Assembly (NCBI GenBank): GCA_030754595.1
Contig: JASLZZ010000094.1
Coordinates: 1 to 54,845, forward strand
From: Nitrospinota bacterium
Lineage (GTDB): Bacteria > UBA8248
Direction of reading: 5' to 3'
DNA: 54,845 nt
Position numbers: made by a program. The number at the start of each line of letters is the position of its first letter. The first letter of the stretch is position 1. Below, in pieces: positions 1 to 3,000 of the stretch.

Positions 1-3000
1 GCCGCGAAGAGGGAGGTGTCCGACGCCCTCCCCGCGAGGATCACCTCCGCCCCCTCGTCGAGCGCTCGGTTGATGGGCTCGTGGCCCATCATCCCGACGA
101 TGTGGGCGCTGCGATCGATGACCTCCTCCGTCAACTCGGGGGCGGGATTGAGGGGCTTGATGCGACCCTCCCGTAGGCGCTGTTTGAGGTAGCCTTTTTC
201 CTGCTCGCTCCGGATGAGGGCCAACCGGAAACGGAGGCCCTCCTCCTGGGCGATCTCGAGGCAGATGTCGCGCATCCAGTTCACCCCGATGTCGCCTCCA
301 CCGGTGCCGCAGGAGCCGACGATGAGCGGGACGCCCAGCCGCCTCCTTCCCAAGAGCATGAGTCGGAGATCCCTTTTGGTGCCTTCGCGGGAGAAGTGTG
401 GGGACCCCGAGCCGAGAAAGGCCGGACCGGAGTCCGTCGAGCCAGCATCGCAGGCGATGACGTGGGGCTTCAGGGAGATACCCCGCTCGAAGGAGGATTC
501 GAGGAAACCGGATCCGATCACTCCGGTGGCCGCCAATACTTGAACTTCGAGCATGGTGACGCTCCTTCAGGCAAAAGATGGTAACTGTGCAGGTACGACG
601 ATTCTTTGGTTTTGAATTGCCGTCTTAAAAAACAATGTCTTTGATTGTGGAATTTTATCATACCCTCCGAAGTCAGGCCTGTGCATGGCGAATTACTAAT
701 CCACCACCAAAGGATCCGAAAACGCGCCAGCGGGGGCGGAGTAGGTCGGTGCGGGTGTGTTGTGCAGAGCCCTATCGACCCCATCAAATTTGGTGTCCAT
801 ATGGGTGTCCATAACCGGTGTGTATCAGTACCAACCGATGTTATTCAGGCTCACCTCGATTTATATACAACTCTTTGAGATTTATAGCTCAGGTTCACTT
901 GATGCCACTCCCTGTCACTCAGTCCAAAAACCCTGGAAATGCCCTCATCATGCAGAAGGCTTACCGGAAGCTGAACGGTAGCTGAGCCCGACCGGCTCCG
1001 GTTGATCGGCCCTGACAGGCGAAATCGCAGGTTGATTCCGTACTATAGTACGGGGTATAGAATTTCTAATCACCTGCGACCACCAGTGTTTTGCGTAAAA
1101 AGGGGAGAGGGACGATGGTGGAAAAAAAAGAGATTCGGCTCGCCGAAATTTTCAAGATGTTGTTGGTGAAAACGGGGGTTAGCCTCTGATGCGCGCCGTC
1201 TCTGGTCCCGGGTCTCGGGGCCGCTATCATCGGCGCGCTGGGTAGCCTGACGGTTTACCGGCCCTATTTCGTTGCATTTGCAATCGTCGCTCTTGTGTGG
1301 ACGTTCTTTCGCCATTACGGGTGGTGTATATCAAGGTCTTGGGGAGAAGGTTTCTCGGCGATTTTCGTTTGCCTCCGTCCCTCGAGCGAACGGGACGCCG
1401 GGCTCTACATCGGTTCGCTCCTCGTCCTTGCTGTGATTATCGCGCCGCCTTGGAGCGTGACCCAGTATTTCAAACCCGCGAACCCTTGCGCGGTATCCTA
1501 TCCTCGGCAGAGGGTCGTCCCTGCTGCGGAATCTCCGCGTCCCATAATTCAACAGATTTCGGAATCCAGTAATCCCTGCGATTCCGGGAATCAGCACTCG
1601 GTCCATTAATCCCTAGGCCAGTTCGTAGCGATACCCTGGCTTTTCCGGTCCGGCTTGACTTCGTATATGGGCATGGAGTGTGGGTTTAAATCCGGAGGAC
1701 GCCCTCCGGCCCGCGCCGCCGAGGTGAATATAATGACGGATACCGAAGCGAAGAAAAGAATTGGTTGGATGGGTTCTATTTTTTCAGGAGCTGCCTCCAC
1801 TGCTTGATGAGTCCCGGCGCTGGCTCCGAGTCTCGGAGCCTCGATTTTTGGCGGCCTTGGCAGCTTAACGGCCTATCGCCCTTACTTCTTGATTTTTGCG
1901 GCCGCTTCGCTGGCGTGGATGTTTTTTCGCCACTTTAAGAACCGCGTCTCCATCGCATGGACACGGGGCGCGGCTGCGGTACTTGCCGAGTTTAAGCCAC
2001 GAAGCGGCACGGACTACCGCCTTTACCTGGGAGCGGCAGCGGTGATCCTCTTGATGGCCTTTCCGCAATGGGGACGGCCTCTTCTTGCGAAGCCTAACAA
2101 CCCCTGCGCGGCGGCGAATCCTTGCGCTACGACAAATCCTTGCGCAGCGGTAAACCCCTGCGCGGCGGCGAATCCCTGCGGTGCCAAGCCCCCAAGCCGA
2201 AAGTAATTTTCTACACCCATCGAATGGTTTCAATTCGGGATGGCTGTTTGGCGCCTTGCGTGAGCGGCTTGACCCCGTACCTAGGTACAGGCTACAGGAT
2301 ACTCCCATCGCGGCGCGGCCGCCTATTGTTTCGCTGAAGACAGGAGAAAGAAATGAACGAAGGCGTAAAAGAAGTCATCGTTTACTCGTCCACGACCTGA
2401 CCCCCATGCAAGGCCGTGAGAGAGTTTCTCTCACATCATGGTATTCCCTTCACGGAAAACCTCGTGGATCAAGATTCCCAGGCGCTCGAAGCGTTTAAAA
2501 AAACCGGCTCGCGCGGCACGCCTACAATTCTCGTCGGGGACGAGATGGTGATCGGTTTTGATCGCGGGCGGCTTGAGCAGCTTTTAGGAATCAAATAACG
2601 GGAGCCCGGAAAATGGCAGCAAAGGAGCGGTGGCTTTTCTGTCCGGTATGAGGCCAGGCGATTCCCGTACCGGCCGGTACATCGTATGACGAATTGTTCG
2701 ATTGTCCCAACTGCGCGGGCATCATGCTTCGCCTCGGCGAAGAGAACGGAGAAGATGTCCTTCGCGCGGCGCAATTGATTTCTTGTCCTGGCTGCGGCGA
2801 GCGATTGCCCATCGATGATGATACGCCGCCGGGGACCCTCATCCGGCATGACGGGGCCGAGTTTGTCCTGACCAAGGAGTTCGGAGCTTTTGCGCTGGAG
2901 AGTTCGTGAAGATCCCGGAGCGATAACGCTACGGGACAGGAGGCCGATCATGGACGCGATGACGATTGGCATACTTGCCCGGAAGGCGGATGTGAACGTC

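Follow-up and report, generated by a model that had tools for sequence, protein, structure and literature searches.

Selenoproteins of the MerT family have been described before, in a C-U form: a small group with this motif is reported in the cited part of the account by Haft and Gwadz (bioRxiv 10.1101/2022.07.06.499078), and a 'putative mercuric transport protein' is listed in the 2022 and 2026 selenoprotein reviews. Closely spaced pairs of selenocysteine (Sec, U) are likewise on record for bacteria, as UxxU metal-binding proteins (NF041115), UxxU Prx-like proteins and UxxU FmdB-family proteins all appear in a recent prokaryotic inventory, together with a CxU ferredoxin-thioredoxin reductase (PMC13188914, Table 1). 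Sec twice in a row is absent from the 119 families and subfamilies of that inventory (2026), as the first-pass annotation of the DNA discussed here had said, and in this sense is unreported for bacteria. Among eukaryotes, an algal PDI_e selenoprotein contains the motif G-U-G-U-U, presented in the cited part of the report on it as the first consecutive Sec-Sec in any selenoprotein (PMC7539508); because the SECIS element is there in the 3' UTR, it is under no positional constraint.

The window analysed here, a stretch of 54,845 nucleotides from a Nitrospinota bacterium, holds between positions 1115 and 2909 of the + strand four genes, each with a ribosome-binding site, whose frames stay open only when TGA does not act as a stop (Table 1). 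Translated with table 11, the + strand of this stretch gives nothing but C-terminal pieces no longer than 105 aa; the antisense strand has ORFs 147 and 179 aa long. The four UGA-containing genes, including the one with adjacent TGA-TGA, are real: all four + strand frames, each needing UGA to be selenocysteine, were found as the first-pass annotation had described them, with the same coordinates for genes 1, 3 and 4, whereas gene 2 ends at 2206 and not at 2200, which was 6 nt short. The values given earlier for DNA identity of 1115-2909 to relatives (68-93%) and for profile matches (MerT 4.7e-5 and 2.6e-5, both below cut-off; Glutaredoxin 1.8e-14; Zn_ribbon_LysW 4.2e-8; NF045683 weak) were reproduced. 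The earlier reading, that all four are true selenoprotein genes and that their setting is of mer type, is supported by the Sec machinery of the genome, by alignment to Cys, by selection and by hairpins, and we think it probable that the region 1032-5558 is a MerR-controlled, mercury-type cluster based on selenium, in which each UGA would be recoded by means of a hairpin within the coding sequence, that of gene 2 serving two codons.

Table 1. Positions of the genes, recoding sites, hairpins and promoters discussed in the text
Feature	Coordinates	Strand	Basis or detail
Promoter P1 with putative MerR operator	1032..1063	+	sequence, dyad search
Gene 1, predicted MerT-family membrane selenoprotein, U25-C26 in helix 1	1115..1609	+	HMM matches, alignment
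UGA of gene 1, read as Sec (U25)	1187..1189	+	
Putative SECIS hairpin of gene 1, GGUCCCG-GGUCU-CGGGGCC	1204..1222	+	14 nt after UGA, -12.1 kcal/mol
Gene 2, predicted MerT-family membrane selenoprotein, U25-U26	1733..2206	+	stop TAA 2204-2206
TGA-TGA, read as Sec-Sec; aligns with Cys-Cys of MerT helix 1	1805..1810	+	
Putative SECIS hairpin of gene 2, GGCUCCG-AGUCU-CGGAGCC	1822..1840	+	7 bp, -13.4 kcal/mol
Predicted periplasmic tail at the C-terminus of gene 2, five repeats of N-P-C-A-A type	2081..2203	+	translation; topology inferred
Promoter-like P2	2269..2300	+	TTGACC 2269-2274, dyad CCGTAC-CTAG-GTACAG 2275-2290 (1 mismatch), then TACAGGAT
Gene 3, predicted glutaredoxin-like selenoprotein, U16 in T-T-U-P-P-C	2353..2598	+	UGA 2398-2400
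Putative SECIS hairpin of gene 3	2416-2434	+	-9.8 kcal/mol, 22-23 nt; agrees with bSECIS model
Gene 4, predicted zinc-ribbon selenoprotein, C10-P-V-U13 and C31-P-N-C34	2613..2909	+	UGA 2649-2651
merR, MerR-family regulator, Cys80, Cys115, Cys124	2950..3357	+	HMM; Cys counted from translation
MerT-HMA fusion gene, C-C in helix 1, G-M-S-U-P-F-T-U in HMA domain	3456..4136	+	
MerE-like small membrane protein, C-P-C	4150..4407	+	PF05052 39.4 bits, cut-off 22.8
Thioredoxin-reductase-like flavoprotein, C-A-L-C	4539..5558	+	

The genome, which is 96.9% complete, contains selA (551.8 bits), selB (364.5 bits) and tRNA-Sec (73.6 bits), all scoring above their cut-offs, and also selD (345 bits, above cut-off), which itself has an in-frame TGA. 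In the window TGA is the commonest stop, ending 17 of the 34 long ORFs, and it is therefore not a reassigned codon.

Do genes 1 and 2 belong to the MerT family? Their own PF02411 scores (23.8 and 24.7 bits) are below the gathering threshold of 32.9. With U read as C, the threshold is passed by orthologues in the relatives G032 (46.4 bits), G046 (45.7 bits) and G031 (43.1 bits, a U-U form), the MerT-like protein of G028 staying below it at 31.1 bits. Profile-profile comparison by hhalign of the U-containing family with seven Cys-form proteins (six of which pass PF02411, the seventh, P0072, lying just below at 30.4 bits) gave a 99.6% match (E 1.4e-24, 111 columns), in which C-C fell on U-U. With three orthologues passing Pfam and a profile match of this strength, the MerT assignment is firmer than the first-pass annotation had it. 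The two proteins resemble MerT in domain length, in predicted helix pattern, in a Y-R-P-Y-F turn and in the vicinal pair of helix 1 at the aligned column, and their genes have MerR, MerE-like and HMA-domain genes for neighbours. The metal-pair column is invariantly C-C in the Cys forms, and U-U, U-C or C-U in the selenoprotein clade. Sec at the metal pair is a feature in common with the known MerT selenoproteins; the pair is C-C or C-U in the known family, and here it would be U-U, U-C or, in a paralogue, U-W.

Other parts of these proteins are less conventional. No Cys was found between residues 27 and 122 of gene 2, so that the cytoplasmic Cys pair of classical MerT is missing from it; in Tn501 MerT this second pair, in the loop between helices 2 and 3, is presumably Cys76 and Cys82. 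In gene 1 the loop that follows helix 2 does contain two Cys (in W-C-I-S and V-C-L-R). Where MerTP fusions have MerP, there is here a Cys-rich tail of N-P-C repeats (two such motifs in gene 1), and repeats of the N-P-C-A-A type are also found on signal-peptide and cytochrome-type proteins. The family NF045683 (MerT/CopZ fusion-like heavy metal transport selenoprotein) shares with genes 1 and 2 the MerT-like N-terminal domain and Sec, but these score just 14.8 and 22.3 bits against its cut-off of 375 and are without an HMA domain, and the MerT-HMA gene downstream reaches only 35.9 bits against the same cut-off. AlphaFold2 placed helices at residues 5-22, 31-42, 46-67 and 92-109 in what is a poor model (pLDDT 63.6, and below 50 for residues 1-37), and the topology (in MerT, three transmembrane helices and a cytoplasmic N-terminus) is suggested solely by the distribution of positive charges.

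The sites occupied by UGA are highly conserved. As had been claimed, TGA-TGA is found in one column in six genomes of three genera (G000, G041, G040 and G038; G028; G031), C-U standing in that column in G032 and the class-level relative G046, and the TGA of the U-C form (gene 1) is retained in all four paralogues compared. Among 51 genomes of the phylum, every one of the 13 MerT-domain matches has in-frame TGA at this site, two in six cases and one in seven (U-U 6, U-C 4, C-U 2, U-W 1); with synonymous divergence between orthologues of up to 0.55-0.78, this is more conservation than chance would give. The 13 proteins form one clade (support 95/96), in which U-U occurs both basally (G031) and in an inner clade, and scanning 185,579 species for the pattern turned up TGA-TGA in this context in five further MAGs, all of this lineage. 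The stretch was detected in 19 runs of 12 studies, and TGA-TGA is unchanged in independent metagenome contigs from runs X16 and X19. At gene 1, the one RNA-library contig that was found spans 1082-1264, the hairpin included, and shows no difference.

The sequences before and after the UGAs are both under purifying selection. In comparison with G040, gene 2 has pS 0.55 and pN 0.036 before the UGAs, and pS 0.32 and pN 0.058 after them; in comparison with G038, the pS/pN values are 0.76/0.17 before and 0.55/0.14 after. Around the single UGA of gene 1, too, pN is far below pS both before and after. It is hard to accommodate these values if UGA-UGA is a true double stop that ends a 24-residue leader peptide, the remainder being made from an internal start or left untranslated, since selection is also purifying over the first 24 codons, in the frame that continues beyond the UGAs. 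Two stops in tandem terminate efficiently, only the downstream part is annotated by gene callers, and the hairpin with the U-run that follows it has been flagged as terminator-like, all of which would suit such an arrangement; yet MerT homology continues across the UGAs, which sit on the Cys-Cys column, and a product starting beyond them would have only half of helix 1 and no metal site. Close database homologues of gene 2 are all truncated directly after the UGAs, but their gene calls begin at differing places, no consistent start codon having been found after the UGAs of gene 2 and no conserved internal start or ribosome-binding site downstream, and G038, G028 and G031 do not share the U-run. 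A double stop therefore seems to us very improbable.

In the bSECIS model (PMC13188914), a loop of 3-9 nt with G in its first two positions caps a stem of 4-16 bp, the distance from UGA to loop is 16-37 nt, and the MFE is at most -7.5 kcal/mol. The gene 2 hairpin, which begins 14 nt past the first UGA and 11 nt past the second and has its apical loop 21 and 18 nt away from them, is within these published constraints for both codons. The same is true of the gene 1 hairpin (stem 7 bp, loop GGUCU, 21 nt from UGA to loop). Across the MerT-like genes the hairpin lies 14 nt after the first UGA, or 17 nt in G031, which bears out the spacing first noted. When 12 sequences were aligned over this hairpin, 83 of the 84 cells were paired, and two pairs had changed on both sides, one of these being Leu CUA with Leu UUG in G046; a U-U mismatch is present in one pair of G041. 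Among 500 shuffled controls 10 did as well, and slid registers paired at most 68% of cells. The covariation is modest, and constraints on RNA and protein are confounded here because the hairpin encodes a conserved peptide, L-A/V-P-G/S-L-G-A. Folding-energy z-scores are unremarkable (-0.28 for gene 2 and +0.53 for gene 4).

Are both UGAs of gene 2 decoded as Sec? From the comparisons above we infer that they are. It is conceivable instead that only one of them is Sec and that a near-cognate Trp or Cys tRNA reads the other, most probably the second, or that the product is mixed, the mature protein being U-W or U-C. An independent contig from run X17 does have TGA-TGG (the change being at 1808-1810), although this is a single contig of depth 4.4 and may be in error; the paralogue in G028 reads S-A-U-W at the metal-pair site, and gene 1 itself is U-C. 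From the X17 contig and the G028 paralogue it follows that Sec at the second position is not obligatory. However, the second position is precisely where G032, G046 and L048 have Sec in their C-U proteins, the spacing of the hairpin suits the bSECIS model for both codons, and TGA-TGA has remained unchanged in six genomes of three genera at pS 0.55-0.78, when TGG or TGY, a single step away, would be far more efficient if Trp or Cys were wanted. We thus regard decoding of just one UGA as Sec as improbable, and favour Sec-Sec. The resemblance to UxxU selenoproteins would then lie in having two UGAs close together in a metal-binding context, presumably with a SECIS structure nearby, the UGAs being a few codons apart in those and directly adjacent in gene 2. 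With the algal PDI_e protein, as described in the cited part of PMC7539508, the consecutive Sec-Sec is shared, but that protein is eukaryotic, has a thioredoxin fold and is no membrane transporter.

The remaining two UGA-containing genes encode smaller proteins of recognizable type. The Pfam Glutaredoxin match of gene 3 (PF00462; 54.1 bits, passed) puts its U on the active-site Cys, one TGA is present in the glutaredoxin of all 43 matching genomes, and its hairpin shows a compensatory change between G-C and A-U. In having UxxC it is like the YruB and UXX-star glutaredoxin-like selenoproteins, the cut-offs of which it does not reach (75.7 against 88.55 bits and 44.7 against 66, respectively). 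Gene 4 passes the cut-off of Zn_ribbon_LysW (PF21344; 33.2 bits against 27) and is below those for FmdB (20.4 against 31.3) and dual-CXXC (13.1 against 40). It has only the zinc-ribbon domain in common with the LysW/ArgW amino-group carriers (NF041070; 43.6 against 75 bits), and adjoins glutaredoxin, merR and mer-like genes rather than genes for lysine or arginine biosynthesis; moreover, its first zinc knuckle, unlike that of LysW-type zinc ribbons, carries Sec. The hairpin of gene 4 (2667-2680) is weak in this genome, where at -4.9 kcal/mol it fails the bSECIS energy limit; in G041 and G040 it has a 7-bp stem. The zinc-ribbon motif pattern was found at 11 of the 20 loci examined, as CxxU in six and CxxC in five, and Sec and Cys interchange between relatives at UGA sites.

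Could the four genes be pseudogenes, left from a decaying mer operon and carrying TGA codons gained as nonsense mutations? The adjoining MerT-HMA gene, which has TGA at 3945 and 3957, is indeed truly interrupted, by an in-frame TAG at 3624-3626 where G040 has Trp, and no MerA was found in the genome. The TGAs of the four genes, however, fall on Cys columns only, each is followed by a SECIS-type hairpin, pN is far below pS, and the TGAs have been kept across genera and across the phylum (43/43 for the glutaredoxin and 13/13 for the MerT-like domain), all of which makes decay scarcely credible as an explanation.

Upstream of gene 1, P1 comprises a -35-like TTGATT (1032-1037), a perfect dyad CCGTAC-TATA-GTACGG (1038-1053) and a -10-like TATAGAAT (1056-1063), with a spacer of 18-20 bp depending on the -10 chosen. 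The exact dyad, for which the chance expectation is 0.02 per window, is the sole exact copy in the genome, and is conserved in G041. Its half-sites are those of the Tn501/Tn21 MerR-binding sequence as given in the cited part of PMC11049809, and the likeness extends to a TTGAC-type -35 abutting the CCGTAC/GTACGG dyad, to the 4-bp gap and to the over-long spacer; in contrast, the central 4 bp are TATA here and ATGA there, the -10 differs, and merR is here downstream on the same strand, whereas there it is divergently transcribed. On its sequence, with identical half-sites, the dyad at 1038-1053 is a putative Tn501-type MerR operator, and the 'mer-type' label used in the first-pass annotation is strengthened by it. 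TTGAC-flanked equivalents of the P2 site are present upstream of the glutaredoxin gene in G041, G038, G028 and G031, and exact dyads occur in the glutaredoxin/zinc-ribbon loci of G003, G004 and G029, with their ends about 69 nt (in G004) and 82 nt (in G029) upstream of where the glutaredoxin match begins. What was described as one operon of four may be two transcription units, because the glutaredoxin and zinc-ribbon genes are a separate phylum-wide module with an operator-like promoter of its own.

The best-scoring model for the regulator is TIGR02051 (128.2 bits, cut-off 150.85), with the ZntR, CueR and CadR models scoring nearly as well, and its Cys80, Cys115 and Cys124 presumably correspond to Cys82, Cys117 and Cys126 of Tn501 MerR. 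This leads to the matter of the substrate, which might not be mercury even though the selenoproteins are real: Cu(I), Ag, Au, Cd or selenium might be handled instead, or the system might serve selenol/thiol redox repair with a MerR-family switch. That the regulator stays below the MerR equivalog cut-off would fit this, as would the fusion to CusF of P0072 (the distant homologue just under the PF02411 cut-off), the occurrence in most of the phylum of the glutaredoxin/zinc-ribbon/thioredoxin-reductase triad without a MerT-like gene, and the results of searches for other mercury genes. The best MerA match in the genome (355.2 bits, cut-off 454.45) was rejected, being lipoamide-dehydrogenase-like and without the C-terminal Cys pair; HgcA was not found either; and MerB was not found by a search that matched no control genome either, so that its absence is not shown. 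On the other hand, the half-sites of the operator match exactly those to which the Hg-responsive MerR of Tn501/Tn21 binds, the three Cys of the regulator are spaced 35 and 9 residues apart (a spacing that we take to be that of Tn501 MerR), and MerT-, MerE- and MerP-like (HMA) genes are grouped together. A substrate other than mercury thus appears unlikely.

How might such a mercury-type cluster work? P1, with its Tn501-type operator, would drive the two paralogous MerT-family inner-membrane proteins, in which the Cys-Cys metal-binding pair of helix 1 would have given way to Sec-Cys in gene 1 and to Sec-Sec in gene 2, and the second operator-like promoter would drive the UPPC glutaredoxin-like and CPVU...CPNC zinc-ribbon selenoproteins, with merR, the nonsense-interrupted MerT-HMA gene, the MerE-like gene and the thioredoxin reductase following downstream. 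SelB and Sec-tRNA would recode each UGA through an intragenic hairpin. For gene 2, one hairpin may suffice for both UGAs: with its foot 14 nt from the first and 11 nt from the second, it can remain folded at the entrance of the ribosome when first one and then the other codon occupies the A site. The ligand would be Hg(II), which the Cys-rich N-P-C tail, acting as MerP in the periplasm, may pass to the selenol pair, and in the cytoplasm the zinc-ribbon, glutaredoxin and thioredoxin-reductase proteins could either take over the metal or maintain the selenols in reduced form.

Put at its strongest, gene 2 would be the first natural prokaryotic Sec-Sec, with one SECIS recruiting SelB twice, and its vicinal pair in a membrane helix, as diselenol or diselenide, would be the metal gate of a mercury pathway that is selenium-based and lacks MerA; we offer this as a possibility in which our own confidence is limited. 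If it were true, Hg(II) would be relayed from the N-P-C tail to the U-U transporter and thence to the Sec zinc ribbon and the Sec-glutaredoxin, recycled by the thioredoxin reductase, in a lineage with about 50 selenoproteins that thiol-based carriers could not protect from Hg. In G005, the one genome of genus g3 that was inspected, the thioredoxin-reductase-like gene comes directly after the glutaredoxin and zinc-ribbon genes.

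The four-gene selenoprotein finding is real. Read with TGA as a sense codon, 1115-2909 on the + strand gives four open genes, as the first-pass annotation had proposed, each with an ATG start and a purine-rich ribosome-binding site ahead of it (see table below); the end earlier given for gene 2, 2200, was slightly short of its TAA stop. Translated with table 11, the region leaves only C-terminal fragments on the + strand, and the earlier HMM scores for the four products and the DNA identities to relatives (68-93%) were both reproduced. Whole operons have remained unannotated because each of their genes needs UGA recoding. 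No Rfam family reached its gathering threshold in the window, the sole tRNA of which is a tRNA-Gly.

Coordinates of the selenoprotein genes, their candidate regulatory sites and neighbouring features
Feature	Position	Strand	Details
Dyad 5' of gene 1 (promoter P1)	1038-1053		CCGTAC-TATA-GTACGG
Gene 1, MerT-like	1115-1609	+	164 aa; G-V-S-L-U-C-A-P-S-L; TGA 1187-1189
Gene 2, MerT-like	1733-2206	+	157 aa; S-T-A-U-U-V-P-A-L-A; TGA TGA 1805-1810; stop TAA 2204-2206
Gene 2 hairpin with the UCGAUUUUUG after it	1822-1850		
Gene 2 N-P-C-A-A repeat tail	2081-2203		
Second dyad with TTGACC (promoter P2)	2269-2290		dyad site 2275-2290
Gene 3, glutaredoxin-like	2353-2598	+	81 aa; T-T-U-P-P-C; TGA 2398-2400
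Gene 4, zinc ribbon	2613-2909	+	98 aa; C-P-V-U...C-P-N-C; TGA 2649-2651
Gene 4 hairpin	2665-2682		CCGUAC-CGGCCG-GUAC...
MerR-type regulator	2950-3357		
MerT-HMA fusion	3456-4136		in-frame TAG 3624-3626
HMA domain motif	3936-3959		G-M-S-U-P-F-T-U
Sigma-70-like promoter	4490-4518		TTGGCA, 17 nt, TG-TAAAAT
Thioredoxin reductase gene	4539-5558		

How might these UGAs be read? A reassigned genetic code can be ruled out: TGA is the commonest stop in the window, ending 17 of its 34 long non-overlapping ORFs, and so is an ordinary terminator. The organism does encode SelB, SelA, SelD and tRNA-Sec, all scoring above curated cut-offs (genome 96.9% complete), and its selD (G000:C16:24543-25505) has one in-frame TGA, which makes it the Sec-containing form of SelD. 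MAGs of this lineage, which stand in public records as Nitrospinota and in GTDB as phylum UBA8248, are described as being among the richest in selenoproteins, with 48-54 such genes each (BSepDB paper).

The window's own two proteins, the products of genes 1 and 2, remain below the Pfam cut-off for MerT (23.8 and 24.7 bits, against 32.9). Support for their assignment to MerT comes from orthologues, three of which exceed this cut-off when U is read as C (46.4 bits in G032, 45.7 in G046, and 43.1 in G031, a U-U form), and from a profile-profile alignment of seven U-containing with seven Cys-form proteins (99.6%, E 1.4e-24, 111 columns), in which U-U falls exactly on the invariant C-C column. Six of the seven Cys-form proteins pass PF02411, the seventh (database protein P0072) lying just under it at 30.4 bits. 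Among 1.84 billion representative proteins there were 50 matches at E <= 1e-3, most covering only the repeat tail, and the close matches to the domain all start just after the UGAs; the best eight matches in a collection of 5.8 billion proteins are 'hypothetical' fragments of 87-114 aa. Homologues called only downstream of the UGAs are what one would expect if almost all members of the family were selenoproteins. One U-C-type homologue, P0028, starts M-A-E-K-G-G-A-G-G-E-V-P-S-L-L-P-G-L-G, with no Cys/Sec pair seen before P-S-L-L; its start may have been called wrongly, in a different frame, or this form may lack the pair. An AlphaFold2 model (14 sequences, pLDDT 63.6) was too poor for a fold search.

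A query with the MerT-like domain matched 13 places in nine of the 51 genomes of the phylum, and all 13 have in-frame TGA at the pair (two in six cases, one in seven). Translation confirmed that TGA-TGA occupies the same column in six genomes of three genera (G000, G041, G040 and G038, which make up one genus; G028; G031), that two orthologues, including that of a class-level relative, have C-U there (G032 and, class-level, G046), and that the upstream U-C paralogue keeps its TGA in four genomes (G000, G041, G040, G039), all as previously claimed. A paralogue in G028 reads S-A-U-W, and no U-U gene was found in G039, though the U-C gene is present there. Outside this set, a DNA-pattern scan of 185,579 species, with one genome per species and a pattern that catches only U-U forms keeping P-A-L-A and Y-R-P-Y-F, picked up TGA-TGA in the same setting in five more MAGs, every one from this lineage. 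A scan of metagenome contigs with a single protein as query gave just five relatives and contributed one copy with 99% identity and one distant C-U form, so that the environmental spread of the family is under-sampled.

A tree built from 20 rows, cut to their first ~122 residues, groups the 13 proteins in one clade (support 95/96), with G031 (U-U) and G032 and G046 (C-U) at its base in no fixed branching order; an inner clade (96/95) holds the remaining U-U proteins together with the U-W and U-C paralogues. Taken with the forms themselves, this indicates that Sec is found at either position according to branch, and that two parts of the tree have it at both. Purifying selection acts in the same frame on both sides of the gene 2 UGAs, as judged by Nei-Gojobori estimates over 24 codons before and 90 after them: pS and pN are 0.55 and 0.036 before and 0.32 and 0.058 after in comparison with G040, 0.76 and 0.17 then 0.55 and 0.14 with G038, and 0.55 and 0.22 then 0.55 and 0.20 with G028. 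The pattern for gene 1 is similar. At this divergence all six bases of TGATGA are identical in six genomes; TGA-TGA is also kept in contigs of two independent runs, and TGA-TGG (U-W, from A>G at 1810) occurs in one contig of a third seawater metagenome (run X17, depth 4.4).

Bacterial Sec insertion requires a hairpin that follows the UGA at a short, fixed spacing, and presumably has a limited efficiency at each codon. Twelve sequences (six U-U, two C-U, four U-C) have a 7-bp stem in common, its 5-nt loop reading GGUCU or AGUCU. Pairing holds in 83 of 84 stem cells, against at most 68% in slid registers, the G041 hairpin having one U-U mismatch. Two pairs carry substitutions in both partners (C-G to U-A, and G-C to A-U), the latter change running in G046 through two synonymous Leu codons. 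Just 10 of 500 shuffles reached this level. The stem region also encodes a conserved peptide, and we regard the covariation as supportive rather than decisive. The hairpin foot is 14 nt from the UGA in all single-Sec forms (U-C and C-U); from the two UGAs of U-U forms it is 14 and 11 nt in this genus and in G028, and 17 and 14 nt in G031, so that the common hairpin 14-17 nt past the first UGA reported earlier for the paralogues was found again. A spacing of 11 nt is that of the minimal fdhF element of E. coli. Each UGA is 18-24 nt away from the loop, within the 16-37 nt of the bacterial SECIS model (PMC13188914), and thus one hairpin can serve both codons without unfolding between them. Such a natural, conserved UGA-UGA on one hairpin offers a direct test of the tolerance of SelB and SECIS geometry (11 vs 14 nt), and could show whether SelB reloads on the same hairpin, codon after codon.

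The SECIS model fits genes 1, 2 and 3 (-12.1, -13.4 and -9.8 kcal/mol, respectively), and the gene 3 hairpin has a compensatory G-C/A-U change across the phylum. That of gene 4 is weak in this genome (-4.9 kcal/mol), and has 7 bp in G041 and G040. Folding-energy z-scores for the 60 nt past each UGA were uninformative in this GC-rich DNA. The gene 2 hairpin is followed by UCGAUUUUUG and was scored as terminator-like by a scan, but we reject a terminator because the U-run, probably incidental, is not conserved in G038, G028 and G031. The gene 4 hairpin resembles the half-sites of a MerR operator, with a centre of 6 nt rather than 4 nt (the complete CCGUACC-GGCC-GGUACGG is present in G041 and G040); this likeness may be coincidence.

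Directly 5' of gene 1 lies TTGATT, followed by a perfect dyad and then TATAGAAT. The dyad is expected by chance 0.02 times per window, and has no other exact copy in the genome. Its half-sites are those of the Tn501/Tn21 mer promoter, in which a symmetrical MerR-binding sequence sits inside an unusual 19-bp spacer (PMC11049809). A second dyad, with one mismatch and TTGACC ahead of it, is found between genes 2 and 3. One-mismatch sites are at chance level genome-wide (eight, against ten in the control), and this one is credited because of its position, the flanking TTGACC and its conservation in relatives, not by count. Equivalent sites flanked by TTGAC occur in the clusters of four relatives (two each in G041 and G028, and also in G038 and G031), and exact dyads in the glutaredoxin/zinc-ribbon loci of G003, G004 and G029 (in G004 and G029 about 70-80 nt upstream of the glutaredoxin match); no operator-like site was found at the examined loci of G039, G032, G046, G005, G009 and G021. 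The regulator gene downstream of gene 4 matches the MerR model best (128.2 bits, under the cut-off), and its three Cys are spaced by 35 and 9 residues, presumably as in Tn501 MerR. A good sigma-70-like promoter just upstream of the thioredoxin reductase gene suggests that this gene also has a promoter of its own. The stretch is present in 19 public runs from 12 seawater studies. One RNA-library contig is identical to 1082-1264 (the 5' end of gene 1, its UGA and the hairpin), which hints that this end of the gene is transcribed, and no more than that; RNA run X20 covered three of 30 bins and does not show transcription.

Glutaredoxin and zinc ribbon form a phylum-wide pair. The glutaredoxin (U) is present in 43 of 51 genomes, with one TGA in every case, and the zinc ribbon in 30, with no TGA in 12, one in nine and two in nine; among the 11 of 20 loci fitting the motif pattern, the first knuckle is CxxU in six and CxxC in five, the CxxC cases including G038, of the same genus as the window. 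In the single genome of genus g3 that was inspected, G005, thioredoxin reductase comes straight after the pair (locus L092, 109-1737, minus strand). MerR-type operators precede the glutaredoxin and zinc-ribbon genes in several genera, even where no MerT-like gene was found. In the window merR, the MerT-HMA fusion and a MerE-like gene lie between zinc ribbon and reductase; in G031 glutaredoxin and zinc ribbon come first, followed by MerE-like, U-U MerT and MerR. The U-U transporter is thus tied to these genes in two arrangements. MerA was not found (the best match in the genome, at 355 bits against a cut-off of 454, is lipoamide-dehydrogenase-like), nor were HgcA or MerB, the MerB search being a weak negative as it was silent in control genomes too. 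A classical resistance operon of the reduce-and-volatilise kind is therefore not what this cluster represents, and a link with mercury methylation or organomercury lyase was dropped.

What might the cluster do instead? Hg(II)-bound MerR would switch on P1 and P2. The N-terminus of the transporter and the loop between helices 2 and 3, both rich in Lys/Arg, are on that account predicted to be cytoplasmic and the N-P-C repeat tail periplasmic, which fits the occurrence of such repeats on signal-peptide proteins and cytochrome-type domains. The gene 2 tail would occupy the place of MerP in MerTP fusions, and the selenol pair of helix 1 would receive metal from it; on the cytoplasmic side the Sec zinc ribbon, and the glutaredoxin with thioredoxin reductase, would act. 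With some 50 selenoproteins in the cell, selenol carriers could hold their own in competition for Hg, unlike thiols. We take the gene structures, recoding apparatus, MerT homology at the metal pair and operator as observed; the main uncertainty attaches to Sec at both UGAs and the fate of the metal, both of which we infer.

A 'putative mercuric transport protein' has been among listed selenoproteins since at least 2007 (also PMC13188914), a small MerT-family selenoprotein group with a C-U motif is on record (Haft and Gwadz, bioRxiv 10.1101/2022.07.06.499078), and Grx UxxC selenoproteins and UxxU metal-binding proteins were already known (PMC13188914). MerT selenoproteins themselves are thus known, and what appears to be new is the U-U and U-C MerT-family pairs in a selenoprotein cluster under a MerR operator. 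The claim that U-U is unlisted in prokaryotes agrees with its absence from Table 1 (119 families/subfamilies) of the 2026 review (PMC13188914). Full-text literature searches for Sec or UGA in consecutive, adjacent or tandem arrangement gave only the algal PDI_e, G-U-G-U-U, described by its authors as the first consecutive Sec-Sec in any selenoprotein (PMC7539508); subscription journals, NCBIfam descriptions and BSepDB fall outside that scope, and could conceivably hold an earlier listing. Placed in a transmembrane helix, a vicinal Sec-Sec would constitute a new motif for metal binding or redox chemistry. Selenoproteins are here tied to a MerR operator of the classical type, in a deep-sea lineage that is widespread and has no MerA found, which points to selenium-based mercury handling in the ocean.

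Finally, we draw attention to some further features. The MerT-HMA gene, absent from G041 and G039, has an in-frame TAG, unchanged in contigs of three independent metagenome runs. Pyrrolysine was rejected, as no PylS was found in the genome and G040 has Trp (TGG) at this position; in this species the TAG thus seems to reflect either a nonsense mutation that has become fixed or a gene that has been split. The HMA domain has UxxxU, unlike the usual CxxC or UxxU, and this is kept in G040. Cys repeats of the N-P-C-A-A type, as in the gene 2 tail, form tails or linkers in numerous further proteins, within this lineage and beyond (e.g. P0013-P0026), several of which bear signal peptides, SoxA/TsdA-type cytochrome (PF21342), cytochrome c peroxidase or YHS domains. 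These repeats may be a common periplasmic module for binding soft metals.
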